Assembly: GCA_965261545.1 (NCBI GenBank)
Contig: CBDHDF010000004.1
Location: 1-64,000 of the forward strand
Reading direction: 5' to 3'
DNA length: 64,000 nucleotides
Source of the DNA: Bdellovibrionales bacterium
Lineage (GTDB): Bacteria > Bdellovibrionota > Bdellovibrionia > Bdellovibrionales > UBA1609
Positions 1 to 60,435 of this stretch are shown here, in pieces. Position 1 is the first letter of the stretch. Each line of letters begins with the position of its first letter. Made by a program: the position numbers and the translations under genes. The notes under the pieces are model-generated. The model saw nothing but the letters and a program-made list of their open reading frames with translations. It had not been told where the DNA came from and did not search any database.

Positions 1-913
1 GATCTCTCGGAAATGATCCCTTTAATATATTCTTCTTCTTTGCGCCTTATTTTATTTCTCATTCGCACCAAATTTTCTCGCTTGATTCTAACGATTGATG
101 GATAAATATTAAAACCAAGAAAGGGAATGCCCTCTGACACAGGAGCTAGCTTAGTTACTCTTTCTTTAAGGCTAAGATTCAGAGTTTCTGCAAGAAATCC
201 TTCTATTTTTTGATGATATTTATTTAGTTCATACTTATCATTTGAAAATGATATAAAATCATCCATATAACGTAGGTAGCTCGGAATTCTGATATGTTCT
301 TTAACAAAATGATCCAAATAATCTAAATAAAAATTAGCAAAATTCTGACTTGTGAGAATCCCTATGGGAGACCCATTCTATCCAAATTGCCAGGCACCTT
401 ATTGTCAATAATTAAATCCAATAGATTCAAGAAATCTTCATCTTTAAAGTTCTTTCTCAATAATTCTTTTAAAATGTCATGATTTATACTATGAAAGAAT
501 TTCTTTATATCGCACTTCAGAAAATACCTAAATTTTCTAGAAAATTTCTGACATCTCCTAACTGCAGAATGAGTTCCTTTACCAGGGCGACAAGCGTAAC
601 TATCAAATATAAATCTTTTTTCAAACACAGGATCGCAATAATTACAAATAGAATGGTGAACCACCCTATCTCTAAAATTCGAACTACAAATTAATCTTCG
701 CTTATGTTCTCTAATTTCAAATTGTATATATGGGCCTGTACGATAGGTTTTTTGGATCAATTCATTTTGTATTTCAAATATTTCATTCTCAAGATTAAAG
801 TAAAATTCTGATATTGTTTTTTTATTTCTTTTCCTTCTCATAGCTTTTTTTGATGCTAACAAAAGGTTATCAAAGGTTGTTAATTCCTCAAAAATATTTC
901 CAATTCTCTTCAT
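1..913 (-). pseudogene. DGR reverse transcriptase, left copy; 1-bp frameshift near 365 and runs off the window edge
   Basis: Near-identical reverse complement of 59422-60335. One C is missing in GGTCTCCCC-ATAGGG, giving ...GLP*. The YMDD-coding segment continues in another frame. Confidence 0.9.
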
Positions 914-1287
914 AGAAGAGACTCCTGCTGCTTCATCCATCCACCAATCATTTTTCCTACCTCATTTATTGATCTAGAAGAGTATTCATAGGACTTTTGT
1001 GACATCATCTTGAGTTCAAAACAAATCCGCAATAAAATTCTCAATTTTTCAAGATTTATATTCATTCTTTTAAGAATGAATATTTTATTCTTATTATAAC
1101 GAGCTTCAACCATATCTTCTACAATAAGTAATGATAGATTTGTAAGATGATCTACAAAAGTAAATCTAGTTTTCTTAGGAAATTTATCAATCGCTACAAA
1201 TAACCACTTCACAAAGTCTACCCACTTTATAAAAATAATTAAATCTTCTTTATTTTTATGAAGAACATTCTTGCTCTGATAACTCAC
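910..1287 (-). CDS. avd: DGR accessory variability determinant (Avd), left copy
   Basis: Protein identical to 59048-59425; overlaps the RT start. Confidence 0.88.
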   Translation of the reverse strand: MSYQSKNVLHKNKEDLIIFIKWVDFVKWLFVAIDKFPKKTRFTFVDHLTNLSLLIVEDMVEARYNKNKIFILKRMNINLEKLRILLRICFELKMMSQKSYEYSSRSINEVGKMIGGWMKQQESLL

Positions 1288-1593
1288 TTGAATCGTCCTT
1301 TAAAACATCACGAACTATAACCTTTGAAATGGATAAGATATCTTTTCCATATTTGTCTACTCTATTTTTTCCTATACCATCAATTTTAACTAAATCTGAT
1401 AGCGTTTGAGGTCGCCTTTTTACTATGTCAGCAATCTGCTGGTTTGTTAAAACTACATAAGGCTGTACAATTGCGCGTATTGCCCGCACTGGTTGCACCC
1501 ATTACCCTCACTTTCCCTATTTCAATGCGTCATTGATGATTTTCCTTCCCATTTCTGGGGAAAATTTTAGTTAATTTGTAATCCTATTTCTTC

Positions 1594-2541
1594 CTATTTT
1601 AGGGAAAAGTCCTGGTCAAGTTTTGTTCCCTGGATTTTTCGATAACTCTCTCCTTTAAGTAAAATTTTCGTAGTGGTCCCTTTAATTGTGCATAGATTCG
1701 TAACTCATTTTGAGAAAGCTCTTTATTTACAGAAGCTTGATGTGTCCAATCTTTTATCAAATTCTATTACCTCTACTCTATGAAAAGAAAATCATTATTA
1801 TTTAATTATTTCAAAGACTTATGGATTTTCATACACAATTAAAGGGACCACTATGAAAATTTTTATGGCGGTATGCTTCAAACGGTCGATGATAGTATCT
1901 GCCAGCACCTCATCATCAATAATTTCTGACCAATGCGTTATTGGCAGTTGAGTGGTAATAACGGTGGACCTATCGGAACGAAACTTTAAAATATCGCAGA
2001 AGTCTGTGGATTCACTTTGGGAGAACTTCCTTAATCCAAAGTCATCAAAAATTAACACTTGGGGGCGGCCCAGACGACGCAAGTAGTTCAAATACCTTCC
2101 TGAGTGCCTTTCCAGGGCCAAGGTTTCTAGAAATATGTTGATGTCTATAAACAGTGTGGAGATTCTGGATTGACAACACTGGTGTCCCAGGCTCTGGGCC
2201 AAGAAGGTTTTACCCACCCCCGTTGGCCCTTCGACAATGATAGACCTTTGCTCCTTAACCCATGATAAAGTTTGAAGCCTATCCATCTCTCTTTTACTAA
2301 TAGACCTTTTGGCATGGTGGTCAAATGCCTCACCTCTGACCTTGTGAGGCAGCTTTGAGGTCTTGAGAAGTCTTTGGCTGAATTGGATTTTCCGAGCCTC
2401 CACTTCTGCAAATAACAGCTCGTTCAATAGATCCAATGCTTGAGTCTTGTGGCTTGTGTTATCCAGCGCCACTTCAAGGCTGTCTAACATTCCATAGAGC
2501 TTCAACTCATGCATGTGGTTTTTGATTTGTACTTCATCCAT
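1594..2541 (-). pseudogene. istB: IstB AAA+ ATPase interrupted near the C-terminus by a MITE
   Basis: Walker A GPTGVGKT and LIFDDFG. Removing 1669-1855 plus one TSD restores ..DRLKHTAIKILLKGESYRK.. Confidence 0.9.
1669..1855. mobile_element. 187-bp MITE (non-autonomous element)
   Basis: 25-bp terminal inverted repeats, 23/25 match (CGTAGTGGTCCCTTTAATTGTGCAT). 8-bp TSD AAAATTTT at 1661-1668 and 1856-1863. No ORF of its own. Confidence 0.9.
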
Positions 2542-3507
2542 CTGGCACCTCCTTGGGGCTTTGGTTATTTGGATTTTCGTTATGTCGCAAATAAGGGTTG
2601 CCTTGTTTACGATCTATTTTCTCGTTCACCTTTTTTATTTTTTGCCCTTTATAGAAATGGAGTTGTTGCTGAAAATATCTAACCCTCCTTTTCTCCCACT
2701 GCTTGCAGTCCTCAAGGGCTTTGATAATGAGAGGAAGGGACTTTTCCTTGCCCTCTTTCTGGATTTCTTTGTGACAGGAGCTTACAAAGCCCATAGCTCT
2801 TCTGAGATTTTCAATGGTCCCACCCTGAAAAAGCTCCTCAATGAAGTTTTCAAGCTCTTTACAAATCATACTTGCTTGAATGAGAATGTTCTGGGGAGTG
2901 GCCTCCTTGTAGGCGCGACTGGGCTCCGGGAGGTGTTCGTTTTTGGTGATGTACTCTCCGAGTTTACCTTTGGTCCTCTTGTGGCGAGCGAGGAGCTGTT
3001 TTTGAAAGTAAATCTCCACACTCTCCACTCCAATTTTTACATCTACATACTCCCCTCGGTGCTGAAACGGAGCCGAGTAGAAGTTGGATTCAACGCTCAC
3101 ATGACAGTCTTGGTGGAGTTTTTTCTTCTCCCAACGTCCCCACCGGTAGGGAAAAGAAGGCAAGGGTTTTAAAGTTTTTACCTCTCGTTGAAATTTTTCA
3201 TTGCGGGAGACCTTAAATCTTGTGTGAGGGCGAGCATTTATCTTCTCGCACACCTCCCTTAAAGCCTTATTAATTTGATCCAGACTGGTGAAGGTCTCTC
3301 GTCTGTACATGAACCTGAGGGCCCTTGTAACGAGCTTCACGGCATTCTCAGTAAGGCTTTTATCCTGGGGACGACGAACTCGAGCGGGAACAGCCACCGT
3401 GTCATAGTGTTCCAAAAGCTCTTGGTAGGATTTATTCAACTCTGGATCATACAAATGGGGTGTGTTCACTCCAGTCTTTAAATTATCAGGAACAACCACT
3501 CTCGGAA

Positions 3508-4898
3508 CAATGCCATTCGCTTAAGAATGGTTGAATTTATTCTAAGACAGGTGTTGTTTCAGAAAATAAAATATGTGACATTATTTTTAAAGGAGCATTG
3601 GAGACTTCAAAATTTTAAATTTACAAAGGAGCGAACAAAATGACAAGTTCGCGTCACAAACCACAAGAATATTATTTCTTATTTACCCAAAGAATTCAAC
3701 AAGAATCACTGCGTTAATGAAAATAAAACTCTAAGAAACAGGAAAATCACCCCAAAATATTTTTCTTTTTCATTCTTCAACTCGCCTGCAATATGACCTT
3801 TGCAGGTTACTCCTCAAATGCCCAAATACTTCAAACCCTTATTGAGGAGTTTCCCTCTCTTGCACAAAGCTCTTTATGTGTCTTCAGACAAAAATATCCT
3901 TTTATTTTTTTAAAGATATCTTCGACAATCGATCTCAAAGACTCTTGGGGGGCACTAAAAACTTATGAAGGATTTCACCTTGTAGGTATTGATGGAGACG
4001 AATATAGCCTTAGTGCGACAGGTGATGCGTTGGAGCAAGGGTATCGTGGTCGCGGGGCTCCTGAAGATAAAGAGACTTATTATCCACGCATGTATGTTGT
4101 AAAAGCTATTCATTTACTATCTGGAGTCATCTGCGGATTTTATCATGCAAATACCTGTAATGAGATTCTAGGAGCCTTAGGAATTTTAGAAAATTTACCT
4201 CAAAAAATCATTGCTGTTTATGATAGACTCTACTTATCAAAGGACTTGCTACAAGCACATCAAGTTCATGGTAGCTATTTTTATCTTCCGCTGCAAAGTA
4301 GGGTCTACATTTAAAGAGATAGTTAATTTTGCGGCAAGCCATATGAGAACAGCAGATGTTGTCTTAGATGGTGTGAGTGTACGTCTGATAAAGATCAAAA
4401 ATCCTAAGACAGGCAAAGATTTGGTCTTTGCCACAAATCTTCCTAAAAAGAATTGGAGTAAGAAGAAGATCGAACAAATTTATCAACTTCGTTGGGAGTG
4501 TGAGACCAGTAATAGAGATCACACTCTTTCCATAAATATGGAATCCTTGCATTCAAAAAGTATTAATGGAGTCTTACAAGAGCTGTATGCCTCATTCATT
4601 CTTAATAATATGCTCCGCCTAGAAGCTCATGAAAATGGAGGTTTCGAGGTAAGTCCAGATACTCCCATTACGAAGAAAGTTAATTTTAAATTTTTAGTAG
4701 AAATGTCTTTTGATTGGTTGGAAAAGATATGGTTTGAAAAAATTGAGGAATTTGTGAATCTGATGAAAAATCTTGTTACAAAAAATATCTCAAAGAGAAA
4801 GAGGATGTCAAGATGGTACGAAAGAGAGATTAAAGGATGTAGGAAGTCCTATAAAAATAGTGCTCTTGTTGTTCGGAGGGTTTAAACGAATGGCATTG
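3508..4898 (+). mobile_element. IS4-family element #1 (1391 bp)
   Basis: 18-bp IRs CAATGCCATTCGCTTAAG (16/18 match). 10-bp TSD ACTCTCGGAA at 3498-3507 and 4899-4908. Confidence 0.92.
3640..4885 (+). pseudogene. IS4-family transposase with frameshifts near 3757 and 4280
   Basis: GIDG, YDRLY and YQLRWECE (YREK-like) motifs are spread over different frames; the shifts fall in homopolymer runs. Confidence 0.82.
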
Positions 4899-5539
4899 AC
4901 TCTCGGAACCCCACCGTAATATTCAAACATCAGAACGTGAGCGTGAAGAAAATCTTCACTGGATTCGCTCAAAGAGCCATAAGCAAAAATACGCTGAGAG
5001 AAACATAGATTTGAGCAAAATATATGGGCCTTATGAATATTAAAGTCTTCATCGATCCACTCTGGCTGAAACCCTGCGTAATCAACCTCAACTTGGTGGC
5101 CTGGCTGAAAATCACGCAAGGTAATAATCCTTTTGCCAGCTTTTGGAAATTGCTTATGAAACTCCCTCGTAAACTGGGGGTAGCTAATGACCTTCAGAAA
5201 TTTTTCCTCCCAAACGTCACTTAAACAATGCCTATCCTCAATCTCCTTCTCAATAATCTTCCAATCTATACCGTAAGACCAAGGGGGAATTTCTCTTTGG
5301 GTCTTCCAATCCTTGGGGTCTGTTAAAAGACCACGTCTTATCTTTCTAAGAGTCTTGGTGCAGCATTTCATGCGGCGACTGATTTCTCGGTCGGGAATAT
5401 TTGCCTTTATTAATGATTTTATTTTTGTGTAACGCTCATGATCCATCTTTGTTCTCATTTCGACCTCCTTGGTTAAAGATTGGAGGTCTTTATAGAACAT
5501 CAATGACGCTATGCTAAGGGGAATCAGTCATGCCAATCA

Positions 5540-5657
5540 GTGCGGGCAATGCCATGCAACTGGTGCGGGCAATGCCATGCAACTGTGAGGGTAATGCCAT
5601 GCAACTGGTGAGGGTAATGTCATGCAATCGGTGAGGGCAATGCCATGCAATTTTACA
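5540..5657. repeat. Five tandem 22-23-bp subterminal repeats of IS21 #1
   Basis: Unit GTG(C/A)GGG(C/T)AATGCCATGCAA(CTG) with no spacers; degenerate inverted copies at 1464-1510. Confidence 0.88.
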
Positions 5658-6140
5658 TAAGGAGGAATACCATCTTTCTTACAACGCTGCGATCTCCAAT
5701 CTCTTAATAAATTAAACAATCCCATCTCGTGTTCAGATAAAGACTTCTTCCAGCTTCTTTCTTTTTGGATGGACCTACTTTTAACTACATCCTGAGCAAC
5801 CGGGCAATACTTAAGTACAAAAACTAAATATGGTGTTTCATTCTTCACAAATAGATAATCACGAGAAGAAACAAGCTCCTTATCTTTTAAAAACTCTCTC
5901 ACTTCATCATCATCAAAACCACCAAGAGCCGAATTAAAAGACAAGGATATGACTTTGATTAACATACACCTCTCACTAAAATAAAACTAAATACGAAGAG
6001 AGGGTTGGCTTTCGCCACGCTCCGCGGGCTCAGCCTTTCCCTCCCTTCTTGCCTTGTGCCCGCCCATGCCTGACGGCTGGCATGCTGAGGCTCGCTTCGC
6101 TTCGCCTGGAAAAGGGTAAAAGTGTAAAAGGGCAAAGGGG

Positions 6141-7955
6141 TTACATAGGCGTCCTCACAAGGCGGAAACCGATAAAGTCCCAGCGATTACCAGGCCGAAC
6201 GTTGAAACGATTGGAAGAGCGCAGGCCGCGAGCGTAGTTGTACCAACCGCCACCACGTATAACACGGTTAGAGCCATTTTTCGGACCTCTAGGGTCTGTG
6301 ACAGGACCAAAATCATACCAAGGTTTAGAATACTCCTCCTCATACCAATCTTCGACCCACTCCCACACATTTCCATGAACATCATAAAGCCCTAGGGGAT
6401 TGGGGCTCAGCAATCCCACGGACCTTGATTGTCGGCTTTGTTTGCCAGATCGAGAGTTCCCACTATACCAACCATAGTTTTGAAGTTCTGAAGGATTGTC
6501 ACCAAAGGAGTAGGCTGTTTTTGTGCCTGCTTTTGCACCACCCCTGGCTGCAAATTCCCACTCCGCTTCCGTAGGCAAACGGTATTCATATTTGTCACCG
6601 TGGGACTCTCTCGCCCTGCGATTGTACTCATTTATAAATTCTTGGACGTCCTCCCAAGACACTCTCTCCACAGGATGATCGGCGCACATTGAAACTCCAT
6701 CTTGTTCCATATAGCTTTCTTGGCAATGCTCTTCTTCTTGGAATCTTGAAGGATTTGTCCCCATCACAACAAACCACTGCCATTGAGTCACCTCTGTGGT
6801 GCTTATTTCAAAGGGCTTAGAAATTGTTACTTTATGAGGGGTCTCATCCGAATCTCGATCTTTTTCAGTCTTAGGACTCCCCATAGTGAAAGAACCTGCG
6901 GACACGGGGACAAAACCATATTGAGACAAGCTTGGTCTCACATAGGCTCTCAAAACACTGTATTCAATGCCCGTTTTGTCTTTTGAATAAAGACGTGTGT
7001 TCATCCGAGGGCTTCCTATCACTTCATCCACCAAGCTTTCAATGACTCCGTTAAGAACTCTCACGGCAGAAGCAAACTCCTGCTTGCTGTCAATTTTTGA
7101 GTCAAGTTCTTCAAGGTTTTTTTCTTAAGGCAGCTAATTGTTTTATAAGAGATCCTGCATTTTCTTCTCCATAGGCGTCTATGAACTTTTCTATGCCTGA
7201 GACCTTTTCCTTGGCCTCATCTCTTTGTCGAACGAGGTCATGGACGGAAGCTTCCATGCCCTCTTTATAGGCTTTGACCTGCCGAGCCTCTTTGGGACCT
7301 AGGGTAGGAAGCTTATTAACTCTTAGCACGGATTGAAGGCGACGCTTAAAGTCACTGACAAGGACTTTTCTTATAAGTGCACCATCGGGCCGCTGGCAAT
7401 CACTCACCTCATTTATAACAGAACCCACTTCACACTCTTGGATCACAATCTTATCTTCTCCTTGGTGGCTTTTTTCTTTATAAAATAAAATCACATCACC
7501 ATCGGGGCCTACAAGATTCACAGAAGAGGGCCTTCTTTTGTCACCCCTCTTATCACTATCACCTCTTTTCGTACCATGAGGACGAGATCCACGAGGTCCG
7601 CTGTGGGAACCATGGCCGCCATGGGAACTATAATGACCTTGGAAGCCAGATCCATGGGGTAACTGGAGTCGGCCTCCTGATTTTAGGGTGATTCGCCTCA
7701 TCTTTTCTTCATGCTTACGAACCACAGCCTTGTAGGAAGCGGTACGGTCTTCTGGTGTAGAAGAGTCCCCTGATGGATTTGTATGATTCTGGTTCTGATT
7801 CAGACCTTTGTCTTGACTCTCTCGGCTCTCTTTGCCCTCTTGGCTCACTCGGCTCTCTTTGCTCAAAAAGGCACATGAGGGCAAAACCATCAATAGTGAC
7901 AATAACCACAAAAGCAATAAAGGTCTCAGGACCTTATGGGTTTCATTCCTTTCAT
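6141..7955 (-). pseudogene. DGR target gene, left copy: lipoprotein with C-terminal FGE-sulfatase/CLec domain; frameshifts near 7928 and 7120
   Basis: FTMGS, HPVERVSW, RLPTEAEWE, GLYDVHGNVWEW and GFRL motifs; LPSC lipobox; two 1-bp indels relative to the right copy. Confidence 0.9.
6154..6278 (-). repeat. DGR variable repeat VR1
   Basis: 125-bp ungapped match to TR 60446-60570 with 13 mismatches, all at TR adenines. Confidence 0.96.
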
Positions 7956-8173
7956 TTTTTGATCTCCTTTCATTTTTTGCTTTGGCGGCACTTTACTTAA
8001 CTCTTGCCCTCTTTAGCCATTGACTTGAAGCCATAAACTCACCCACTATCTGAACCAACCTTAGTCTCATTGACTCAAGCCTACCTACTTGACTTTACTT
8101 ATGTCACTAAGTCATTGTCGACACAAAATAGTACAAACTTGAATTTCTAGACTTTGCGAGGACTCCACTGACA

Positions 8174-8674
8174 TTGCCGCCAAAGAAAACCTCAGAAAAA
8201 AGAAAACAACAGTCTCAGTCCCATAATGCTCTATTCAATGAAACTTTCCTGAATGAGAGATATTGCCTAGACATTTTCCGTCTTGTCTTGACGACACAGG
8301 AGTTTAAGCTCTTTAACTGGAAAACTCTCAAACCAGAAATAACTGTCTTTACAGATGAAGAGGGCAATGAGCGGCGCATTGACCTTTTATTCTCAGTTCA
8401 AGTCAAGGGGTCCCAAAAACGGGTACGTCTTTTTTTTCTGCTCGAACACAAAAGTCATCAGGATTCTCAAGTTCTCCAACAAATTCTGAGGTACCAGACC
8501 CTTGTTTACAATCGCTGGAATTATCCGGTCATTCCCATACTGGTCTATCACGGACGACAAAAACACTGGAGGGGTCCCCTGAATTTTCAAGACTCTCTGG
8601 ATGGACTCACTCCCGTTTTAAGACAAAAATTTGGGAAGAATATCCATGATATAAACCTTCGTATTGGGTCATAA
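8174..8674 (+). pseudogene. Rpn/YhgA-like PD-(D/E)XK putative transposase, C-terminally truncated
   Basis: HNALF.., RIDLLFSV, LLEHKS and VIPILVYHG motifs; only 166 aa. Confidence 0.75.
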
Positions 8675-8750
8675 GTAAACGACGTTGGATCGAGTAAGGG
8701 GCGAGCTCACAGAACTTGCATACGGGTCCGTACACAACTCCTAAGAATGA

Positions 8751-10187
8751 CTAAAGTTCAGCAGAAAATATCCGGGTCTTTCGTTCGATGGACACTGGGA
8801 TTCTGAGATAAAATTGACTGCCCTCTGCCGAAGTCCAATCAATGCCAGCTTCACCACCATGGGCATACATAATATGACGGACAATGGACAAACCAAGACC
8901 TGTGCCTCCCTTGTCACGGCTTCGCCCCTTATCAACACGGTAAAAGCGTTCAAAAAGTCGAGACTGTTGAGTTTCCTTTATTCCTGGTCCACAATCCCTT
9001 ACAAGAAGGTCTATAAAATTATCAACTCGACGGGATGAAATCGTCACTGTCGTGTTTTTAGGACCATATTTAATGGCATTATCCACCAAATTCACCAAAG
9101 CTTGTATCAACAAGGTGAGGTTTCCCTGAAATTCTGTAATTTCTAAGTGCTGGGCCTCAATGGAAATGCCTCTGTCCTGCGCCTTTTGTGAACAAACTTC
9201 TATGGTTCCCTTGACAACATCTTCAAGGTAAGTCCACTGCACATTAGAAATACGATCTCCCTTTTCTAGCTCCGACAATACCAATAGATTATCAATCAAA
9301 GAATCCAAATGATCCGCATGTTTTTGAATAACTTTTGAAAATTGTCGAAAATGATCTTGAGATTGAAGAGCCGGATTTTGCATGGTTTCAGCATAGCCCT
9401 TAATAGACGTAAGTGGCGTTTTTAGTTCATGGGAGGCATTGGAAACAAACTCTTGCCTATGACGCTCCAATTTTCTCAGCTCAGAAACATCCACAAGTAC
9501 AAATATGGAACCACGAAACTTAGCTTTGAGGGAAAAAATAGGACTGGAGCGAACAATAAAGACTCTTTCTGAAACTTTGTTCTCATCAAGAATGATCTCT
9601 CTTTTCTGTTTTTCCTGACAAGCAGCTGCATGTTCAATAAATTCCCTTAAACTAGATAATCCAACAATATCTTGCACATAAAAATCCTCTTTCATCTCCA
9701 TGTGAATACCTAAGATTTCTTTGGACGAAGAGTTCATGTGATTAATGCGCCCCTCTTCATTAACAGAAATCACCCCCTCATCCATATTCTCCAGAATAAC
9801 CTCTTGTTGTATTTGCCCCTTAATGACAGCCTTTTGACTGCTCCTAAAATCTCTCACAAGTTTGGAAAGAGTTGATGCTATGGATAAGATTTCTTGGGGA
9901 GTTCTTTTCTTCTTTTGAAAGGAAACTTTCAAGTTCCCCTCAGTGACATTTTCGATATAGGTTTTAAGATCTTGCATGGGACTAAGAGCTCTTTGTAGGA
10001 CCCACCAAAGGAAAATACCAGAAACCAAGAAAACACAAATAACAAGAAAAAACTGTAAAGGCTGCCAAGACAATAAGCCCAAAGTTGCAACCATGGCAAA
10101 GACAACAACACATAAACAGGGAGGGAAAACACACCATATATATGTTTTAATGGGAGGCACCATCATCAAAGCGATAACCCACTCCAT
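8751..10187 (-). CDS. phoR: PhoR-like sensor histidine kinase (TM-HAMP-PAS-HisKA-HATPase)
   Basis: FVSNASHELKTPLT, NLVDNAIKY, FERFYRVDKGRSR, GGTGLGLSIV. Confidence 0.85.
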   Translation of the reverse strand: MEWVIALMMVPPIKTYIWCVFPPCLCVVVFAMVATLGLLSWQPLQFFLVICVFLVSGIFLWWVLQRALSPMQDLKTYIENVTEGNLKVSFQKKKRTPQEILSIASTLSKLVRDFRSSQKAVIKGQIQQEVILENMDEGVISVNEEGRINHMNSSSKEILGIHMEMKEDFYVQDIVGLSSLREFIEHAAACQEKQKREIILDENKVSERVFIVRSSPIFSLKAKFRGSIFVLVDVSELRKLERHRQEFVSNASHELKTPLTSIKGYAETMQNPALQSQDHFRQFSKVIQKHADHLDSLIDNLLVLSELEKGDRISNVQWTYLEDVVKGTIEVCSQKAQDRGISIEAQHLEITEFQGNLTLLIQALVNLVDNAIKYGPKNTTVTISSRRVDNFIDLLVRDCGPGIKETQQSRLFERFYRVDKGRSRDKGGTGLGLSIVRHIMYAHGGEAGIDWTSAEGSQFYLRIPVSIERKTRIFSAEL

Positions 10188-10851
10188 GCACTGTTTTTAT
10201 ATGTTGGCCCGCTTGCCCAAGCTTTTTGCGAAGACCCACCATCTGAAAGTCAATGGACCGATCCGTCACAGCGTAATTATCCCCATGAATCTTATCTACC
10301 AGTTGATTGCGTGTAAAAACCCAACCCGGCCGGCTCATAAGAGAATGAAGAATTCTAAACTCCACCTTCCGCAACTGAATTTTCTTCCCATGAACATGAA
10401 CCTCATGCCTCCCAAAGCATATATCAATACCATGAAGGCTTATGGTGTCCATCTTTTCCACCTGCCTTTCCCCACGCTTGAGAACAGTTTTCACCTTAGC
10501 CACAAGCACTTTGGGGCTAAATGGTTTTGTCATATAATCATCAGCCCCCATTTCCAAACCCTGTAGAATATTTTCTTCAGAAACTTTCGCTGTGACCATA
10601 ATAATGGGAAGAAGTTTAAACTGAGAATACTGACGAATCCAGCGACAAAGATCCAGACCACTGAGGCCAGGCAACATAAGATCGAGAAGAATGAGGTTCG
10701 GGCAACTCTCAATGAGAGCATCAGGAACAGATTCGCCTCGACTAAAGTGCTGAGTGCTTGCTCCCTCCAACTCTAAGTTAATACAAATAAATTGTGCAAT
10801 ATCTCTTTCATCTTCGACGACAAAGATCTTTTTTCCCGACAATTCACCCAC
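10147..10851 (-). CDS. phoB: PhoB/OmpR-family response regulator
   Basis: Receiver LLDLMLPG and GADDY; winged helix IKTVHGVGY; adjacent to the phoR-like gene. Confidence 0.8.
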   Translation of the reverse strand: MGELSGKKIFVVEDERDIAQFICINLELEGASTQHFSRGESVPDALIESCPNLILLDLMLPGLSGLDLCRWIRQYSQFKLLPIIMVTAKVSEENILQGLEMGADDYMTKPFSPKVLVAKVKTVLKRGERQVEKMDTISLHGIDICFGRHEVHVHGKKIQLRKVEFRILHSLMSRPGWVFTRNQLVDKIHGDNYAVTDRSIDFQMVGLRKKLGQAGQHIKTVHGVGYRFDDGASH

Positions 10852-10868
10852 AAAAACTCCTTAAATAC

Positions 10869-23181: not shown

Positions 23182-23197
23182 TGTTCCACGTGGAACA
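23182..23197. promoter_or_regulatory. parS centromere-like site
   Basis: Perfect palindrome TGTTCCACGTGGAACA (extends to 23179-23200) upstream of parA. Confidence 0.93.
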
Positions 23198-31860: not shown

Positions 31861-31872
31861 GGGGTTATATCC

Positions 31873-49781: not shown

Positions 49782-50997
49782 TGTCTTATCTCCTGCCAGA
49801 CTTTTTGCTGGGTCTAATGAGGTGATATTTAGTCCATCTTTGGTCTATTTTTGCGAGTAAGGGTCACTTGGAGCTTGGTGAGTTCGCAATTTTTTCTTTG
49901 TTCTGTTCTTCTTTCAGTGGTCATATTACCCTCACGGCAGGCGAGAAGCTTCTCATAAGTAAAGTGAATCATAGAAATAAGCTACAGGCAAAGTTAATTC
50001 GCAGGGTCGAGTTGAATAGGAGGAAAATAGACTCTCTCGCAAAGTCTAGGAATTCAAGTTTGTACTATTTTGTGTCGACAATGACTCAGTGACATAAGTA
50101 AAGTCAAGTAGGTAGGCTTGAGTCCAGAAATTCCCGCCGAGCTTGAAAAAACATTGAAATTCCTCCAAATCTCAGTGTGAGAATTGCACTGCATCGAATA
50201 AGGTAAACCTCCCCGTCTTCGCCATTTAGAGGCGAATGTCCAGACTTTAGTTTAGGGCAAATACGTTAAACTCTTTGGGGCACTTTGAGAAAAATGGCTG
50301 CTCATGATGTGTCGAAAACATCTGAGGCAGCAATAGGCTTAATCCCATAAGCCATTATGGCGAGGAGTTCCTGCCAATTTTTAAAGTATAGGGTATGGAA
50401 ATACCCCCTCATATGATCCCATAGATAAGATGTTAGCTGACAATTAAAATGCCCCACCGTCGCCAATGAAAAGTGGCCACTTTTCAGAGGAGGACCTATG
50501 GTGATTTTTGGCATTGTCAACCGAGACGCATATAATCAATTGATATTACTCATAAAAAGGCTCCGAGCTGATAAGAACTCCTTTTGGGTTCTTGTCGACC
50601 TGGAAAGGGGCTCCGTGTTGGAGAGTCCTTCCATGACAGCCTATTCAGGTTCCATATTTCTCATTTGTAGACTGTTTCTGGATTTCAATGAGGTTAAATA
50701 TATAGTCAAGAAAAGCCTGTTTAGGCTGTGCCCATTTTCTAAAGTATTTAAATTCCACAAGATTCCAACATTTGCCTCAATTTTCATGGAATTTCTTTTT
50801 GAAGACAGGCTTCCCTTAAAGCCGTCGCCAATTAAAATGTCCCACTTTCAATATGGAGGTTGTCGCCAATGAAAAGTGACCAATCTTCAGGGAGTGTTCA
50901 AATACTAGACAATGAAGTCTCTTCTTCTGATATAGATACTAAGCTCACAGAGTCCCTCCCTTTTGCAACTCAAAAGGTTAGCAATGAGGAGGATCTT

Positions 50998-52464
50998 ATG
51001 ATTAGTCAATACACTTTCGGCCGCATTCGTGACCTGAGTCACAGTGGTAAAAATAAGACAGAAATATCTCGTGAATTAGGGATCAATCGTAAGACGGTGC
51101 GCAAGTACTGTAAGTCCAACACCCCACCGAAGTACAAGGCGAGGTCCAAAAGAACTCGCCCAGATCCCCTTAATGGATATATGGATCGGGTGAAGTACTT
51201 TTTGAAGTTGAACCCAAGTAACACCGCCCGTGAAATATATGAGCTATTAGTTGAGGAGGGTTATCGTGGGAGTGAGAGAACGGTTCAGAGAAGAGTTTGT
51301 GAGATTCTTGGTTCTCGCCCCAAGGAGCGTTTTTTCAGCCAAAGATATGATCCTGGAGAACAGGCTCAGTTTGATTTTAAGGAGAAGGTTGCTTTACCAT
51401 TTGCCGATGGTGTTCAGATCGTTCATCTCCATTTTGGAACATTGCCTTGTAGTGGCACCTGTTGGGTTCGTGCCTACCCCTTTCTTGTCTATGAGTGTTT
51501 CATCGATGGGGTGCATGCTTTTTTTGAAAAGATAGGTGGGATGAGTGCGAACATCCGTATTGATAATTTATCTCCCTGTGTGAAGAAAGTTCTTAAAGGA
51601 AATCAGCGAATTTACACCCAATCTTTTGATCGAGCCATCCAATACTATGGATTTAAGGTTCTTCCCTGCCGCGCAGGGAAGGGCTCTGACAAGGGAGATG
51701 TGGAGCGTGATATTCGAACCTTCAGTTCTCGGATAAAAAATATTGTTAGAAACAAAGGAATTGTTTTTAAAGACTGGGATCATTTGAATCAGTTTTTAGA
51801 GTCTTATATGGATCAGCATCAGAGTGACTCCACCAAATCTCGCTTTGAGGAGGAGGCCAAAGTTCTTAAGCCTTTGCCTCCACGAGATGAAGATATTCTC
51901 TGTAAGGTGAATATTTGTCAAAGTAATGGTTATGGGACTTTGAGAATAGGTAAAACCACATATTCCATACCTGATGAGGTGATCCAATCTCCCTGTAAAA
52001 CCGTACAGGGTCCCTATCATGTCACGATCTATCGTGCAGGAGGGAAGCAAGAAATTGTCGCTCGCCATCAAAGAAAACCTGATGGGGAGCATAGTCTTCT
52101 TCTTGAACATATCCTTCCTTCTTTAGTTCGTAAGCCGCAAGCCATGGTAAGATGGGCTCACCGATCCATTCTTTTTCCAACAAATGTGTTTGAAAATTTT
52201 TATCAATACCTCAAGCAACAAGATTCAAGCCGTGCCGAGCATGAATATTTAAGAGTTATCAACTTGATTCAGCATGTGAGTTGGCAGGACTTATCTACAG
52301 CCATGGAGCTTCAATTAGAAAGTCGTGAGATTTTCGACTTTAAATCCATAAAAGATTTGCTCTTAGGAAATCCCACCAAAATTAATTTGAATGACCAACA
52401 AAAACCACTTCAACCTAGATTGTCTCAATATGACAGTCTTGTTCCAAACATAGGAGGTTCTTAA
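50998..52464 (+). CDS. istA: IstA transposase
   Basis: HTH EISRELGINRKTVRKY, PGEQAQFDF, DKGDVER; GAGGAGG RBS before 50998. Confidence 0.93.
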   Translation: MISQYTFGRIRDLSHSGKNKTEISRELGINRKTVRKYCKSNTPPKYKARSKRTRPDPLNGYMDRVKYFLKLNPSNTAREIYELLVEEGYRGSERTVQRRVCEILGSRPKERFFSQRYDPGEQAQFDFKEKVALPFADGVQIVHLHFGTLPCSGTCWVRAYPFLVYECFIDGVHAFFEKIGGMSANIRIDNLSPCVKKVLKGNQRIYTQSFDRAIQYYGFKVLPCRAGKGSDKGDVERDIRTFSSRIKNIVRNKGIVFKDWDHLNQFLESYMDQHQSDSTKSRFEEEAKVLKPLPPRDEDILCKVNICQSNGYGTLRIGKTTYSIPDEVIQSPCKTVQGPYHVTIYRAGGKQEIVARHQRKPDGEHSLLLEHILPSLVRKPQAMVRWAHRSILFPTNVFENFYQYLKQQDSSRAEHEYLRVINLIQHVSWQDLSTAMELQLESREIFDFKSIKDLLLGNPTKINLNDQQKPLQPRLSQYDSLVPNIGGS

Positions 52465-53246
52465 TGAATCACGAAGAACTTATAGGTTCTCTTAAAAAAC
52501 TCCGACTTCCAGCGATGGCGGATGAATATGTTGCAACGGCTAGAGTTGCCGAAAAAACAAAAAAGACGTATGAACAGTATTTAGGTATACTCGTTCAAAA
52601 TGAGCTTGCTGACAAGCATTCCCAGAGAGTGAAAAGATTGCTTAAGGGGGCCAAGCTTCCTCAACTTAAATCACTCCAAACTTATAACTTCCAGAAAAGA
52701 ACGGGAGTGACAGCTCAGCAAATTAATTGGATGGCAGAGGGAGAGTGGGTCAGAAAAGCCTGTAATGTTGTGTTTTACGGAAGCTTTGGAATGGGGAAAA
52801 GTCATTTGGCCATGTCCCTAGTTCGTTCACTCTGTGAACAAGGCTATCGATGTTTATGGGTCACCACTCATGAACTTATTGAAACAATGCGTGAAAGCAA
52901 GAAAGAACTCTCATTGAATGCTCTTTTTAAGAAATTAGACCGTTTTGATCTTATTGCTTGTGATGAACTTGGCTATACAGCTTCCTGCACAGAGGGGGCA
53001 GATCTTTTCTTTCAATTCATATCTCAGCGATATGAAAGGAAAAGTCTCATGATCACTACAAACTTAACATACTCTGAATGGGATAAGGTGTTTCTTAACC
53101 CTATTACCACCGCTGCTGCTGTTGATCGAATCATTCACAACTGTGAAACCCTCAACATTGAAGGAAAAGAAAGTTGGAGAACCGAATCGGCAAAAGCCAA
53201 GTCTAAACAGAGCAAAGAGGAAAGTTCAACCAAAGAAGTTCATTAG
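52464..53246 (+). CDS. istB: IstB ATPase
   Basis: GSFGMGKSH, DELGY, TTNL, DRIIH. Confidence 0.94.
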   Translation: MNHEELIGSLKKLRLPAMADEYVATARVAEKTKKTYEQYLGILVQNELADKHSQRVKRLLKGAKLPQLKSLQTYNFQKRTGVTAQQINWMAEGEWVRKACNVVFYGSFGMGKSHLAMSLVRSLCEQGYRCLWVTTHELIETMRESKKELSLNALFKKLDRFDLIACDELGYTASCTEGADLFFQFISQRYERKSLMITTNLTYSEWDKVFLNPITTAAAVDRIIHNCETLNIEGKESWRTESAKAKSKQSKEESSTKEVH

Positions 53247-55828
53247 AGATCCCCACTTTTGGGGAAGGAACTCGCCAGTTATCCACAAAATTTATCCACA
53301 GCAGCACTGCGTTGCTAGACATCGGGGTCACAGCCGCAGTGTCGCCATGGATAAATTTATGGATAACTGGCTTTTACCGTACTATTTGCTCGTCACTCTC
53401 GCGGAGCTTTAGACATTAGCTGCGCCAAGGAATCCTGAAAAATACTCCATTTACCTCTGCCATAGGGCTGAAGGATGCATTTGGGGTCATGCCAAAAGTG
53501 GTGGGCAGAAAATCATTCCTCAGAATCTTGTGGCATAGTCCGAGTTAAATGATGAGCAAAATAAAGACACTTGACTAAACTCTGAACGAAGAATAACTAA
53601 ATCAGTACATCATCAACTGGCCGTTTTTCATTGGCGACGGCTTCTAAAAATGGCCAATTTTAATTGGCGCCTAACATAAGATAGTCTCCTCTCTTTTTCT
53701 ACCGCCTTTTGAAACAATTTACAGGCCAAATGTTGAAGTTGGTCCACTAAAAATACCAGCATCATAATCACGGCTAAATTGTTACACAAATTTTGCTTGC
53801 CGTGGCCAAAATTGTGCTCAAAGTTGTAACCCAAATTCTTTAACGTATTAAATGTTTCATTTTCTATCTTCCAGCGTGCTCTTCCCCCCCTCATTATTTG
53901 CATTATGTTGTCTTCGTTGATCTCAATGTCAGTCACCCAGCTAAAGTGCTGAACCTTACCGTTTGCTTTCGTTTCTTTGTATTCAATAAAATTCACTCGA
54001 CAATCAGGATTTGAATCATTGAGTGAAACATCATTTATGAATCGAAATTCATGTGTCACTCCATTCTCTACCACGGTGAAGTGAGAAACTGTTCCTAAGC
54101 TATCTGCTCCATTTACAAACTCAAATAAAACTTTGTGGTCCCCCATCTTACAGCCTAAAATATAACTTAATTTTAATTCGTTAAGAAGAGTGATGTGAGG
54201 AGCATTGGAAGCCAATCCATCCTCAATAACAATCACTGGAAGGTGAGGGTGTTCCCTGCGAAAATCTTCAAGGAGTCGTTTGGCTGCATTACGCTCACAA
54301 TCATTTTTGCTCGATCCATCTGTGTTTGAAATGGGCTCTGGAGCAATAGGTATAACCTGTTTCTTATCGGGGTGAACAATCACTCCTGCTAACATTTGAT
54401 GATAGTAGGTCTTCGTCTCATCACGATGATTCTTTATACAACAATTCTCACAATGAATAGTCGAGGAGCTAAAGGCACCTGTTCCATCAATGCTGAGAAG
54501 ATATTTTCCACCCAAATATGGGTAACCCTCCAAAACCTTCCCTCTTTGAGCTACGGTAAACAAAGATTTAAAAAAATTTTGAAACTCACGGGTTGGAACA
54601 GGATCTAAAATCTCTCGCATAGCCGTATCACTAGGAATTTGGCCTATTTGAAACAAATGGTGTAGGTTGTTTTTTGCCACTGGGTCATGGACACGATCAC
54701 AAAACTGAAGCATGGATGGATCTTTCAAGGCAAACATTGCCACAGATGACATAATGGCATCGCTCAGAGGAATCCTATGGGGACGCTGCGATCTTATATC
54801 TGGAACTGCAAGAGATTTACTGTGTAGCAGGGAATACATTCCTGAAGCGGATAGACCTTTTCTAAAATGTTGATGCGACATGACGAACCCTCCTTGGTCT
54901 GATGTGCAACAACAAATATTCAAACAGATACTTAGGCAAAAGTCTACGAACTCTTTTTGAGGCGAATCTTTTGGAAGCCACTACTGTGGCCTAAACTATT
55001 TTTCGACGGGAATTGCTGGCTTGAGTCAATGAGACTAAGGTTGATTCAGATAGTGGGTGAGTTTATGGCTTCAAGTCAATGGCTAAAGAGGGCAAGAGTT
55101 AAGTAAAGTGCCGCCAAAGCAAAAAATGAAAGGAGATCAAAAAATGAAAGGAATGAAACCCATGAGGTCCATGAGACCTTTATTGCTTTTGTGGTTATTG
55201 TCACTGTTGATGGTTCTGCCTTCATGTGCCTTTTTGAGCAAAGAGAGTCGAATGAACAAAGAGGGCAAAGTGAGCCGAGAGAGTCAAGACAAAGGTCTGA
55301 ATCAGAATCAGAATCATACAAATCCATCAGGGGACTCTGCACCTCTATCTACATTACATCATCTACACCAGAAGACCGTACCGCTTCCTACAAGGCTGTG
55401 GTTCGTTCGTAAGCATGAAGAAAAGATGAGGCGAATCACCCTAAAATCAGGAGGCCGACTCCAGTTACCCCATGGATCTGGCTTCCAAGGTCATTATAGT
55501 TCCCATGGCGGCCATGGTTCCCACAGTGGACCTCGTGGATCTCGTTCTCATGGTACGAAAAGAGGTGATAATGATAAGGGTGACAAAAGAAGGCCCTCTT
55601 CTGTGAATCTTGTAGGCCCCGATGGTGATGTGATTTTATTTTATAAAGAAAAAAGCCAACAAGGTGAAGATAAGATTGTGATCCAAGAGTGTGAAGTGGG
55701 TTCTGTTATAGATGAGGTGAGTGATTGCCAGCGGCCCCATGGTGCACTTATAAGAATAATCCCTGTGAGTGACTTTAAGCGTCGCCTTCAATCCGTGCTA
55801 AGAGTTGATGAGCTTCCTACCCTAGGCC

Positions 55829-57239
55829 CAATGCCGTTTCCTTAAGAAAAATCTCTTGAAATCATTAGATAAATCGACAAGAATAAGACTTGTTTTATTT
55901 TACACCCAACCCTCAACCAAGGAGTAAGTCACATGCAATCCAATATTGATCTCGAAAGCCCCCAAATGACGAGTTCGCGTCACAGATGACCATTTTATTC
56001 TACCAAAACTTGATTCTTCCTTCAAGCCAGAGCACCTTGTCGATCCAGAAAAACAAAAAAGGAATCGAAAATTTAATCCTCAAATTTTCTTTTTTACCAT
56101 TATCTATCTTATTTCAGGAACAAATTACGAAGGCTACCAAATCGCTCTTAAGACGGTATGGACTCATTTTGGTGACCTGCTTCTCATGCCAGTCAAAAGC
56201 AGTCTCAGCAAGATACGTCAAAGTATTTCTTACCTATTTTTCAAAGATATCTTTGAATCTCTGATTACAGACTACGAACCATTGAGAAAAACGTTTCATG
56301 GTTTTTATATCTATGCCATAGATGGCGACCAATTAGCACTTCCTCGCTCTAAAGATCTTTTAAAGGAGGGTTATTGTGGGTACCCTTGCCCAAATGAGAT
56401 GGAAACTCATTTCTTACGTATGTATCTATCTCATGCTTATGACGTTTTATCGGGTGTGACAAAGAATCTTTGCTATTCTCCCGCTCTCAACGAAATCGCC
56501 AATGCTATTCAAATGATAGGTAGTTTTGAGAGTAATAGCATAACTCTCTACGATAGGCTTTATTTATCTACAGAGATTATTAAGGCCCATGCTCAAGCCA
56601 GTAACTTCTTTATTGCGCGTTGTAAGCGAGGCTCTACTTTTATCCCCATCGTAAATTTATTTAATGGCCCAGGTTGGTATTCACAAATGGTTATTGAGGG
56701 GGTGGTCATTCATCTCTATAAGTATAAAAACCCAAAGACTGGGGAGTTCTCTGTTTTGGCCACTAATCTTCCGCATGGCTCCTTGGACAAGAAGGATATG
56801 GTTGCTCTTTACTCTCGTCGTTGGGAAATAGAAACGACATTTCGTGATTTTACATCGACAATGAAAATGGAGCAGTGGCACTCAACAAGCCTTAATGGAA
56901 TATTGCAAGAGCTGTATTCTTATTTTTGGCTCTTCAATTATACAAAGATTCAAATGAGCATAAATGAGGATGAAGACAGTGTGAATCAGTTGGTGAAAAA
57001 TGACTACAAAAAACCTAACTTTAAACTGATTCTTGATTTCATAATGGATAGCATCCCTCTTTTTGTTGCGGGGCTCTATCAGAAATTTAGGAAGCAGATA
57101 AAGTTGCTGATGAAGATTTCAATGGAGAAGAGGAGGCACTTCAAAAGAAGCTATGAAAGGTCTATCAAAAGGGCTGGGAGTTCTTTTAAAAGAAATAGCT
57201 TAACGCAGAGGGGTGTGGTGGCTTAAGGAAACGGCATTG
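55829..57239 (+). mobile_element. IS4-family element #2 (1411 bp)
   Basis: Perfect 18-bp IRs CAATGCCGTTTCCTTAAG. 10-bp TSD ACCCTAGGCC at 55819-55828 and 57240-57249. Confidence 0.94.
56186..57226 (+). CDS. IS4-family transposase (frame open from 55970; true start unclear)
   Basis: AIDGD, YDRLY, YSRRWEIETTFRD. Confidence 0.88.
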   Translation: MPVKSSLSKIRQSISYLFFKDIFESLITDYEPLRKTFHGFYIYAIDGDQLALPRSKDLLKEGYCGYPCPNEMETHFLRMYLSHAYDVLSGVTKNLCYSPALNEIANAIQMIGSFESNSITLYDRLYLSTEIIKAHAQASNFFIARCKRGSTFIPIVNLFNGPGWYSQMVIEGVVIHLYKYKNPKTGEFSVLATNLPHGSLDKKDMVALYSRRWEIETTFRDFTSTMKMEQWHSTSLNGILQELYSYFWLFNYTKIQMSINEDEDSVNQLVKNDYKKPNFKLILDFIMDSIPLFVAGLYQKFRKQIKLLMKISMEKRRHFKRSYERSIKRAGSSFKRNSLTQRGVVA

Positions 57240-58256
57240 ACCCTAGGCCCCAAAGAGGCTCGGCAGGTCAAAGCCTATAAAGAGGGCGGGGAAGCTCCCC
57301 GTTTCCATGACCTCGTTCGACAAAGAGATGAGGCCCAGGAAAAGGTCTCAGGCATAGAAAAGTTCATAGACGCCTATGGAGAAGAAAATGCAGGATCTCT
57401 TATAAAAAAATTAGCTGCCTTAAGAAAAAACCTTGAAGAACTTGACTCAAAAATTGACAGCAGGCAGGAGTTCGCTTCTGCCGTGAGTGCTCTGAACGGA
57501 GTCATTGAGAGCTTAGTGGATGAAGTGATAGGAAGCCCTCGGATGAACACTCGTCTTTATTCAAAAGACAAAACAGGTATTGAATACAGTGTTTTGAGAG
57601 CCTATGTGAGACCAACATTGTCTCATGGTTTTGTCCCCGTGTCTGCAGGTTCTTTCATCATGGGGAGTCCTAATACTGAAAAAGGTCGAGATTCGGATGA
57701 GACCCCTCATGAAGTAACAATTTCTAAGCCCTTTGAAATAGGCACCACAGAGGTGACTCAATGGCAGTGGTTTGTTGTGATGGGGACAAATCCTTCAAAA
57801 TTCCAAGAAAAAGAGTATTGCCCAGAAAGTTATATGGAACAAGATGGAGTTTCAATGTGTGCCGATCATCCTGTGGAGAGAGTGTCTTGGGAGGACGTCC
57901 AAGAATTTATAAGGGAGTACAATCGTAGGGCAAAAGAGACCCACGGCAACGAATATGAATACCGTTTGCCTACGGAAGCGGAGTGGGAATTTGCAGCCAG
58001 GGGTGGTGCAAAAGCAGGCACAAAAACAGCCTATTCCTTTGGTGACAATCCTTCAGAACTTAAAAACTATGGTTGGCATCAGGGGAACTCTCGATCTCGA
58101 TTTGGCAAACAAAGCCGACAATCAAGGTCCGTGGGATTGCTGAGCCCCAATCCCCTAGGGCTTTATGATGTTCATGGAAATGTGTGGGAATGGGTCGAAG
58201 ACTGGTATAAGAGGAAATATCCTGAAGGTCCTGTCACAGACCCTAGAGGTCCGAAA

Positions 58257-58381
58257 AATGGCTCTTACCGTATTGTACGTGGTGGCGGTTGGAACGGCTA
58301 CGCTCGCTCCCTGCGCTCTTCCAATCGTGGCTACGATCGGCCTGGTAATCGCTGGAACGTTATCGGTTTCCGCCTTGTGAG
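58257..58381 (+). repeat. DGR variable repeat VR2
   Basis: 125-bp ungapped match to the TR with 14 mismatches, all at TR adenines. Confidence 0.97.
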
Positions 58382-58569
58382 GACGCCTATGTAACCCCTT
58401 TGCCCTTTTACACTTTTACCCTTTTCCAGGCGAAGCGAAGCGAGCCTCAGCGTGCCAGCCGTCAGGCTGGGCACAAGGCAAGAAGGAAGGAGAGGGAAAG
58501 GCTGAGCCCGCGGAGCGTGGCGAAAGCCAACCCTCTCTCCGTATTTAGTTTTATTTTAGTGAGAGGTGT

Positions 58570-59079
58570 ATGTTAATCAAAGTCATATCCTTGTCTTTTA
58601 ATTCGGCTCTTGGTGGTTTTGATGATGATGAAGTGAGAGAGTTTTTAAAAGATAAGGAGCTTGTTTCTTCTCGTGATTATCTATTTGTGAAGAATGAAAC
58701 ACCATATTTAGTTTTTGTACTTAAGTATTGCCCGGTTGCTCAGGATGTAGTTAAAAGTAGGTCCATCCAAAAAGAAAGAAGCTGGAAGAAGTCTTTATCT
58801 GAACACGAGATGGGATTGTTTAATTTATTAAGAGATTGGAGATCGCAGCGTTGTAAGAAAGATGGTATTCCTCCTTATGTAGTTTTAACAAACCAGCAGA
58901 TTGCTGACATAGTAAAAAGGCGACCTCAAACGCTATCAGATTTAGTTAAAATTGATGGTATAGGAAAAAATAGAGTAGACAAATATGGAAAAGATATCTT
59001 ATCCATTTCAAAGGTTATAGTTCGTGATGTTTTAAAGGACGATTCAAGTGAGTTATCAGAGCAAGAATGTTCTTCATAA
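58570..59079 (+). CDS. HRDC-domain DGR accessory protein
   Basis: LFNLLRDWR..GIPPYVVLTNQQI..RPQTLSDL..IDGIGKNRVDKYGKDIL is an HRDC signature. Confidence 0.9.
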   Translation: MLIKVISLSFNSALGGFDDDEVREFLKDKELVSSRDYLFVKNETPYLVFVLKYCPVAQDVVKSRSIQKERSWKKSLSEHEMGLFNLLRDWRSQRCKKDGIPPYVVLTNQQIADIVKRRPQTLSDLVKIDGIGKNRVDKYGKDILSISKVIVRDVLKDDSSELSEQECSS

Positions 59080-59425
59080 AAATAAAGAAGATTTAATTAT
59101 TTTTATAAAGTGGGTAGACTTTGTGAAGTGGTTATTTGTAGCGATTGATAAATTTCCTAAGAAAACTAGATTTACTTTTGTAGATCATCTTACAAATCTA
59201 TCATTACTTATTGTAGAAGATATGGTTGAAGCTCGTTATAATAAGAATAAAATATTCATTCTTAAAAGAATGAATATAAATCTTGAAAAATTGAGAATTT
59301 TATTGCGGATTTGTTTTGAACTCAAGATGATGTCACAAAAGTCCTATGAATACTCTTCTAGATCAATAAATGAGGTAGGAAAAATGATTGGTGGATGGAT
59401 GAAGCAGCAGGAGTCTCTTCTATGA
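59048..59425 (+). CDS. avd: DGR accessory variability determinant Avd
   Basis: 125-aa basic helical protein with KFPK..RF and EVGKMIGGW; ATGA-coupled to the RT. Confidence 0.9.
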   Translation: MSYQSKNVLHKNKEDLIIFIKWVDFVKWLFVAIDKFPKKTRFTFVDHLTNLSLLIVEDMVEARYNKNKIFILKRMNINLEKLRILLRICFELKMMSQKSYEYSSRSINEVGKMIGGWMKQQESLL

Positions 59426-60435
59426 AGAGAATTGGAAATATTTTTGAGGAATTAACAACCTTTGATAACCTTTTGTTAGCATCAAAAAAAGCTATGAGAA
59501 GGAAAAGAAATAAAAAACCAATATCAGAATTTTACTTTAATCTTGAGAATGAAATATTTGAAATACAAAATGAATTGATCCAAAAAACCTATCGTCCAGG
59601 CCCATATATACAATTTGAAATTAGAGAACATAAGCGAAGATTAATTTGTAGTTCGAATTTTAGAGATAGGGTGGTTCACCATTCTATTTGTAATTATTGC
59701 GATCCTGTGTTTGAAAAAAGATTTATATTTGATAGTTACGCTTGTCGCCCTGGTAAAGGAGCTCATTCTGCAGTTAGGAGATGTCAGAAATTTTCTAGAA
59801 AATTTAGGTATTTTCTGAAGTGCGATATAAAGAAATTCTTTCATAGTATAAATCATGACATTTTAAAAGAATTATTGAGAAAGAACTTTAAAGATGAAGA
59901 TTTTTTGAATCTATTGGATTTAATTATTGATAATAAGGTGCCTGGCAATTTGGATAGAATGGGTCTCCCCATAGGGATTCTCACAAGTCAGAATTTTGCT
60001 AATTTTTATTTAGATTATTTGGATCATTTTGTTAAAGAACATATCAGAATTCCGAGCTACCTACGTTATATGGATGATTTTATATCATTTTCAAATGATA
60101 AGTATGAACTAAATAAATATCATCAAAAAATAGAAGGATTTCTTGCAGAAACTCTGAATCTTAGCCTTAAAGAAAGAGTAACTAAGCTAGCTCCTGTGTC
60201 AGAGGGCATTCCCTTTCTTGGTTTTAATATTTATCCATCAATCGTTAGAATCAAGCGAGAAAATTTGGTGCGAATGAGAAATAAAATAAGGCGCAAAGAA
60301 GAAGAATATATTAAAGGGATCATTTCCGAGAGATCACTCGTTCAATCTGTTAATAGTGTGATTGGTCACGTTGCCCATGTTAATTCTAAGGAGGTGAGAA
60401 AAGATATTTTTACAAGTTCTTTAAAAATGGCGTGA
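59422..60435 (+). CDS. DGR reverse transcriptase, intact
   Basis: [32 protein letters not shown] (GxxxSQ), RYMDD, FLGF; compact (337 aa) with no maturase or endonuclease extension. Confidence 0.96.

Follow-up and report, generated by a model that had tools for sequence, protein, structure and literature searches.

A 64,000-nucleotide stretch from a Bdellovibrionales bacterium (assembly GCA_965261545.1, contig CBDHDF010000004.1, positions 1 to 64,000; hereafter the window) carries, on either side of its predicted replication origin, an inverted pair of sequences belonging to a diversity-generating retroelement (DGR), which an earlier note had read as two DGR copies bracketing oriC in one chromosome. 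Our analysis indicates that such a chromosome is likely not real. With a probability of roughly 0.75, the genome contains one DGR core, hrdc-avd-rt followed by a template repeat (TR), together with scattered target genes, and the left copy is that core in the version of a less common, co-occurring strain, assembled as a dangling contig end.

The source genome comprises 11 contigs totalling 4.3 Mb, and the window opens at the very first base of contig C4. Self-BLAST of the window recovered four blocks on opposite strands (E-values of 4e-37 to 0), pairing 1-1462 with 60335-58873 (99.6% identity), 5654-7305 with 58881-57240 (93.3%), 7292-8081 with 55831-55018 (93.2%) and 8072-8160 with 50124-50036 (97.8%). 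The blocks sum to 3,960 bp with overlaps taken out, and the gaps between them are insertion sequences (ISs) in the left hrdc, the right target's upstream region and the right target. The predicted oriC, a DnaA-box cluster between dnaA and dnaN (31645..31872, box matches at 31645-31759), adjoins the cumulative GC-skew minimum at 32017; a parS-like palindrome lies at 23182..23197, and parB and parA occupy 21121..23032 on the minus strand. In the assembly the repeats lie on opposite replichores, their inner junctions 23.6 and 18.3 kb from oriC, and both copies point away from the origin. The ~4-kb inverted repeat bracketing oriC, parS and parAB, its spacing and its outward orientation were thus as the earlier note had described them in assembly coordinates, and the skew minimum fell beside the DnaA boxes. 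The description of 1-8160 as the reverse complement of 50036-60335 held for the blocks but not as a clean reverse complement, the target halves being 94.5% alike; nor is the target part a two-copy repeat, as six full-length FGE-sulfatase targets occur in the genome.

Four public runs from one sample were examined as Logan k-mer contigs (depth 2-9). Because Logan gives a single depth per contig, a twofold step over rt would be unreadable; only branching and junction contigs were used. In run X1, a 12,892-base contig of depth 9.2 extends from 58707 to past 64000 with 0 differences from the right copy, crossing the left copy's IS site, the rt end and the TR without interruption. In run X2, a 16,571-base contig of depth 6.5 starts right at the IS site (58873) and continues unbranched. 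If every cell contained a second core with a flank of its own, assembly paths would have to diverge after rt and TR; neither contig showed such a fork or a second outer flank. The junction between the left hrdc and its IS (1462/1463) was bridged in one of the four runs, by a 59-base contig in X2 (depth 2, versus 5.75 for the uninterrupted form), and was absent from the other three, the deepest run included. Were the junction present in every cell, the rough Poisson chance of these observations would be 0.001 for X1 and 0.043 for X2.

Run X3 yielded a 2,577-base contig that bears the left rt alleles at 404 and 431, continues 1.6 kb past the position of window base 1 and runs over the TR into lptC. 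Because its hrdc 3' part is uninterrupted, this contig is distinct from the left copy and represents a related haplotype. The left-hand changes at 574, 739 and 817 and the left frameshift were found in none of the four runs. The remainder of a left cassette was found on no other contig, the assembly having one TR and one full rt; since the contig end cuts the left copy, its missing TR and complete rt are not proof of absence. X3 also showed a 12-base insertion in lptC (window 60926) and an 8-base loss downstream of it at 62102, both absent from X1 and X2, which are strain variation. A joint of 58541 to 58705, present in all four runs, was considered as an hrdc deletion allele and rejected, as it matches the flank of the target paralogs C11 and C7a.

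These contigs bear on the alternative that a real second, decaying cassette exists on the same chromosome in at least one strain, a recent duplication having been inverted near phoR, with an IS21 then breaking hrdc and the contig breaking within the repeat. Such a history would account for the IS junction in X2 and for the two left rt alleles in X3, and would suit a genome with hrdc remnants beside target paralogs and 35.6% of its length in repeats of at least five copies. It also has precedents, namely duplicated, transposon-degraded DGR loci in Thiohalocapsa PB-PSB1 (PMC10907252) and the presence of more than one DGR in ~10% of complete DGR genomes (PMC5758913). A duplicate is hard to reconcile with the finding of just one TR and one rt 3' end across all contigs, the unforked sequence downstream of rt and TR in X1 and X2, the missing IS junction in three runs and the continuation of left alleles into lptC in X3, and we regard it as improbable. 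Even as a co-resident duplicate, the left copy would be broken in hrdc. The earlier claim of two DGR copies in one chromosome is accordingly not sustained, and the proposed gene-dosage gain and repair of a broken copy lose their basis, because both need two co-resident cassettes; a dosage benefit is not supported.

The make-up of the left copy fits an allele of the right-hand core. It starts at C4 base 1 and ends inside rt, without a TR. Its DGR parts, all on the minus strand, begin with an rt cut by the contig end (1..940), which differs from the right rt by five substitutions and a one-base loss (365-368) causing a frameshift; the substitutions at 404 and 431 are synonymous, and those at 574, 739 and 817 non-synonymous. 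The left avd (910..1287) is identical to the right avd. The hrdc gene is split into a 3' part (1256..1462) and a 5' part (5654..5965, identical to the right hrdc) by an IS21-family element (1463..5657, likewise minus strand), into which a ~190-bp element (1669-1855) and an IS4-like element (3509-4898) are nested. Across hrdc-avd-rt, left and right differ at 6 positions in ~1.8 kb, versus 5.5% in the target bodies, which fits alleles and not an old duplicate.

The upstream half of the left copy has a different affinity. A 3' spacer (5966..6140), the likely join, separates hrdc from the left target gene (6141..7970, minus strand), which encodes a lipoprotein-like N-terminus and a C-terminal FGE-sulfatase/CLec domain, and which has two private one-base indels, near 7120 and near 7930. 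Its variable repeat (VR; 6151-6278, minus strand) is changed at 13 of 33 TR adenines and 1 of 95 other bases. Across the IS-free target unit, identity is 94.5% with the right copy and 96.5% with the C11 paralog; of 90 sites outside the VR that distinguish C11 from the right copy, the left copy is C11-type at 67. C11-type sites end at 6083 and the cassette type holds from 6005, with a private indel scar (6043-6067) in between; the switch position is approximate, because the cassette-type side consists of one site before the flanks diverge. From this pattern the left copy looks like a remote-type target joined in its 3' spacer to the cassette core. Beyond the target lie an Rpn/YhgA-like gene cut by an IS end (8174..8683, plus strand) and phoR-phoB-lysR (8751..11829, minus strand). 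Only one other place, the fumC-linked target paralog at C7:139913, has the same rpn::IS junction (8638-8683). The terminal ~40 bases of phoR (window 8741-8790) match 14 other places and resemble an IS end; this tail is common to both phoR alleles of the assembly, and the PhoR C-terminus may have been built from an IS scar.

Several features show that the assembly mixes haplotypes. A second phoR-phoB-lysR allele lies near the end of C10 at 98.4% identity, with mostly synonymous changes (synonymous to non-synonymous, 11:1 in lysR and 11:8 in phoR); its neighbours are presumably ftsEX-envC-ctpA-like genes, judging from their translated sequences. The C10 end could perhaps be joined to the C4 left arm via this second allele, but the C10 tail has positive skew over ~70 kb. 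At 6 of the 22 contig ends (the right ends of C2, C3, C5, C6 and C8 and the left end of C4), the sequence passes directly into a low-copy duplicate of a contig interior, with 97.5-100% identity. One study describes how long-read metagenome assemblers produce false duplications and paths from minor subpopulations (10.1101/2025.04.22.649783). Any repeat covers 45% of the genome, and GC skew changes sign often along all large contigs; around oriC, the window from 8.7 to 50 kb has 0.9% in repeats of at least five copies and is almost IS-free. Among the repeats, one IS4 is present in 83 near-full copies and one IS21 in 33, and about 20 near-identical Rpn/YhgA-like genes lie within ~100 kb (C2:279000-381000), some spaced ~1.7 kb apart. 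A tandem array of 39-bp period and about 9 copies was also noted at window 43326-43689, inside open reading frames without a known family.

Under the reading we favour, one core shared by two strains, an IS21 would have hit hrdc in the minority haplotype, in which the core would sit downstream of a remote-type target and next to phoR. The assembler would probably have followed this haplotype outwards from phoR and stopped inside rt, we propose because the TR and lptC had already been used on the right. Several points weigh against this account. The evidence consists of Logan k-mer contigs and not reads, so that phasing fails beyond ~30 identical bases; such contigs drop rare branches, and the depth is only 2-9. 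The four runs all come from one sample, possibly the source of the assembly, and hence are not independent. The X3 contig with left rt alleles has an intact hrdc 3' part, and the link of the left copy to rpn and phoR rests on the assembly and not on reads. The 32-bp hrdc remnants in the C11 and C7a paralogs imply that whole or partial cassette copies arose earlier in the lineage. Finally, the assembler and read type of the assembly are not on record.

Within the favoured reading, a real crossover and an assembler stitch are about equally likely origins of the join in the 3' spacer. If biological, the join would record a near-symmetric, oriC-spanning inversion between strains A and B, in which the remote target beside phoR recombined with the cassette-linked target, placing a single hrdc-avd-rt-TR block behind a different target and promoter; this is possible, though tentative. 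It would explain the C11-like composition of the left target with its change to cassette type between 6083 and 6005, and the rpn::IS junction common only to the other fumC-linked paralog. The cassette lies on the leading strand in both arrangements, and inter-replichore inverted repeats tend to symmetry about oriC (PMC9297083). The reciprocal junction (TonB side plus fumC-type flank) is not in the assembly, in which 49800-50035 occurs once. The indel scar at the switch is not expected from clean homologous recombination, and the cassette-type side of the switch amounts to the single site noted above. IS pairs would also be far more plentiful substrates for inversion, because GC skew flips often on the large contigs.

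The indel scar lies exactly between the last remote-type and the first cassette-type sites, and this placement argues for the other origin of the join, in which phoR-linked reads of a remote target overlapped, within the 2.3-kb, 94-96% identical target repeat, with an IS-bearing cassette allele, and no inversion took place. We hold this version with similar reserve. The private one-base indels and three unsupported substitutions of the left arm suggest thin coverage, and the same dangling-end pattern recurs at 5 other contig ends. Set against these observations, the ~2.8 kb from phoR to hrdc could be spanned by long reads, if the assembly is a long-read one, as its contig sizes suggest. The earlier suggestion of recombination between the copies survives in part: recombination is plausible between target paralogs and the left copy is recombinant-like, but two co-resident cassettes as its substrates are not supported. 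A broader proposal, that target paralogs are the crossover sites of a population-polymorphic, origin-spanning inversion in which a 42-kb flip of oriC reassigns the cassette-linked surface lipoprotein and could switch mutagenesis on or off, appears rather unlikely.

Synteny with relatives, which the earlier note had put forward as a check, gave conflicting results, and these were not used in support of the favoured reading. The nuo-lon genes lie on the parAB side in all four relatives fetched far enough (the G007 stretch stopped short), as in the left-copy arrangement, which favours a biological join; the nuo side could equally go back to an earlier inversion of the core segment at the origin. 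By contrast, in 1 of 14 loci from relatives the xer/sigma-54 pair adjoins ppnK, favouring the right-hand linkage. In near-complete relatives ppnK is off the dnaA contig or 150-1,200 kb from dnaA, and around lysR none of the four fetched relatives had a further gene in common with the left arm of the window. An ATP synthase-like block follows bactofilin/parB in five relatives; here secA-suf follows (window 20690-17806), and the block is at C10:372-379k. A match to the reverse transcriptase (RT) was found in 10 of 40 relatives and on the dnaA contig of none, a weak observation because these are drafts. A pattern scan of GTDB genomes returned one distant locus (39%), RTs in phage records reached no more than ~40%, and an exact protein look-up found four of seven proteins, each with one member on one contig, and no other assembly with these proteins.

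By its sequence features, the right-hand locus is a DGR of the Treponema-type plan, with one core, an HRDC gene and several remote lipoprotein targets. The earlier identification as a DGR stands, with an RT, the adenine pattern between TR and VR, accessory genes and a CLec target all present. The gene order is target, hrdc, avd, rt, TR and lptC, on the plus strand. The right target's upstream region starts at 50036..50124 and is interrupted by a multi-copy IS-like element (50125..55018) with a 9-bp target duplication and a nested IS21 (50431-53676). The cassette-linked target gene (55123..58394) is split by an IS4 (55830-57239, 11-bp target duplication), and its VR (58257-58384) is changed at 14 of 33 TR adenines and 1 of 95 other bases. 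An intact hrdc accessory gene (58570..59079; PF00570, 74 bits) is followed by avd (59048..59425; NF033474, 108 bits against a cut-off of 80), and PF22296 and PF00570 both scored above cut-off. The RT of 346 aa (59395..60435; RVT_1, E-value 5e-21) is the genome's sole full-length copy, and the YMDD in its translation indicates an intact catalytic motif; the S-Q motif preceding YMDD we take to be a DGR-type mark. The TR (60446..60573) is the sole copy in the genome, and the lptC/lptA-like gene (60779..62017) is the cassette's single outer flank in the run contigs. A promoter and terminator scan of the cassette gave results at chance level (13 versus 8.8 +/- 3.0).

The six full-length target paralogs are located at C4 left, C4 right, C11:148k, C7:141k, C7:51k and C2:787k, with fragments on C5, C6 and C10. 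Relative to the TR, 11-21 of 32-33 adenines are changed in each of their six VRs, as against 1-2 of 93-95 other bases. At the 3' end, the part considered for putative IMH/IMH* and downstream homing signals, the six are alike and differ from the TR at one non-A base. A seventh, decayed VR fragment on C10 is changed at 18 of 33 adenines and 17 of 95 other bases. From these matches, one RT/Avd/TR module would serve all dispersed targets in trans. Both window targets matched PF03781 (FGE-sulfatase/CLec) with E-values of ~1e-51, with six full matches genome-wide. Both are broken in the assembly, whereas three remote targets are intact open reading frames of 607-627 aa and one other is frameshifted within its VR. 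The target N-terminus contains a lipobox-like motif (recognised by eye), a Gln/Asn repeat of variable length and a His/Gly/Ser-rich stretch, and had no Pfam or NCBIfam match (window 55123-55829 and paralogs). The paralogs C11 and C7a retain the 32-bp hrdc remnant, and C11 and C7:140k both run into fumC sequence.

Remote targets were also observed within a repeated integrase-rpn-target module (C11:146987-153312, C2:783504-788186 and C5:10080-14677). The 387-aa tyrosine-integrase-like gene of this module recurs about ten times, as copies or fragments with >90% identity, and the DGR targets may be spread by a mobile element. On C10, 43 bp of the hrdc start lie at 380532-380574, upstream of a putative tatB-like gene, and a decayed VR-like stretch at 751852-751970 overlaps the end of a sucD-like gene.

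As it most probably stands, the locus is of little consequence, adding one more HRDC- and Avd-bearing DGR with remote lipoprotein targets. It does carry a caution, in that inverted 'duplications' at the ends of metagenome contigs can be two strains' versions of one locus. Should the crossover be real, the 42-kb origin segment would be inverted between two strains relative to the lptC-recN-nuo arm, and the phoR-target-hrdc join would exemplify in nature how DGR target paralogs can rearrange the chromosome around oriC and exchange the core's upstream gene. Such a recombinant would be new in detail, its mechanism being ordinary repeat-mediated inversion; our literature search found no report of DGR-mediated inversion about a replication origin.

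Comparisons with known systems point in several directions. The left end resembles the long-read metagenome errors in which a contig carries sub-population-specific sequence or a repeat absent from one genome (10.1101/2025.04.22.649783); unlike that study, which relied on read clipping and HiFi reads, the evidence here is indirect and comes from k-mer contigs. Like symmetric inter-replichore inversions (PMC9297083), the window has inverted repeats on both replichores at similar distances from oriC, and recombination would preserve strand polarity and dosage; unlike them, it has one orientation in the assembly, and its repeat may be found only between haplotypes. The genome of Thiohalocapsa PB-PSB1 (Dore et al. 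2024, PMC10907252) is similarly IS-rich, and mobile elements have degraded its DGR parts, which are also duplicated and recombined with other 5' parts; its copies share one circular genome, whereas here co-residence of the second core is only hypothetical, and the main text of that paper does not use the word 'inversion'.

The relative G034, of the same order but another family, shares the arrangement target-hrdc-avd-rt-TR, with identities of 62% for the RT, 71% for Avd and 65% for HRDC. Unlike the source genome, G034 has one RT match only, its target is a different protein of 1,056 aa, and its DGR is off the dnaA contig. The Treponema denticola DGR likewise has one RT, one TR and an HRDC accessory gene (Architecture C in PMC5758913, Wu et al. 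2018; PMC4891356, Nimkulrat et al. 2016), and several remote FGE-sulfatase/CLec targets with lipoprotein signals, some of them truncated or leftover (PMC5758913, PMC4891356). About half of 14 HRDC DGRs carry avd (PMC5758913). In contrast to T. denticola, the locus described here has the order target-hrdc-avd-rt-TR with both HRDC and Avd, and its ~610-aa targets are 94-96% identical, several of them beside rpn and an integrase, in a heavily IS-laden genome.

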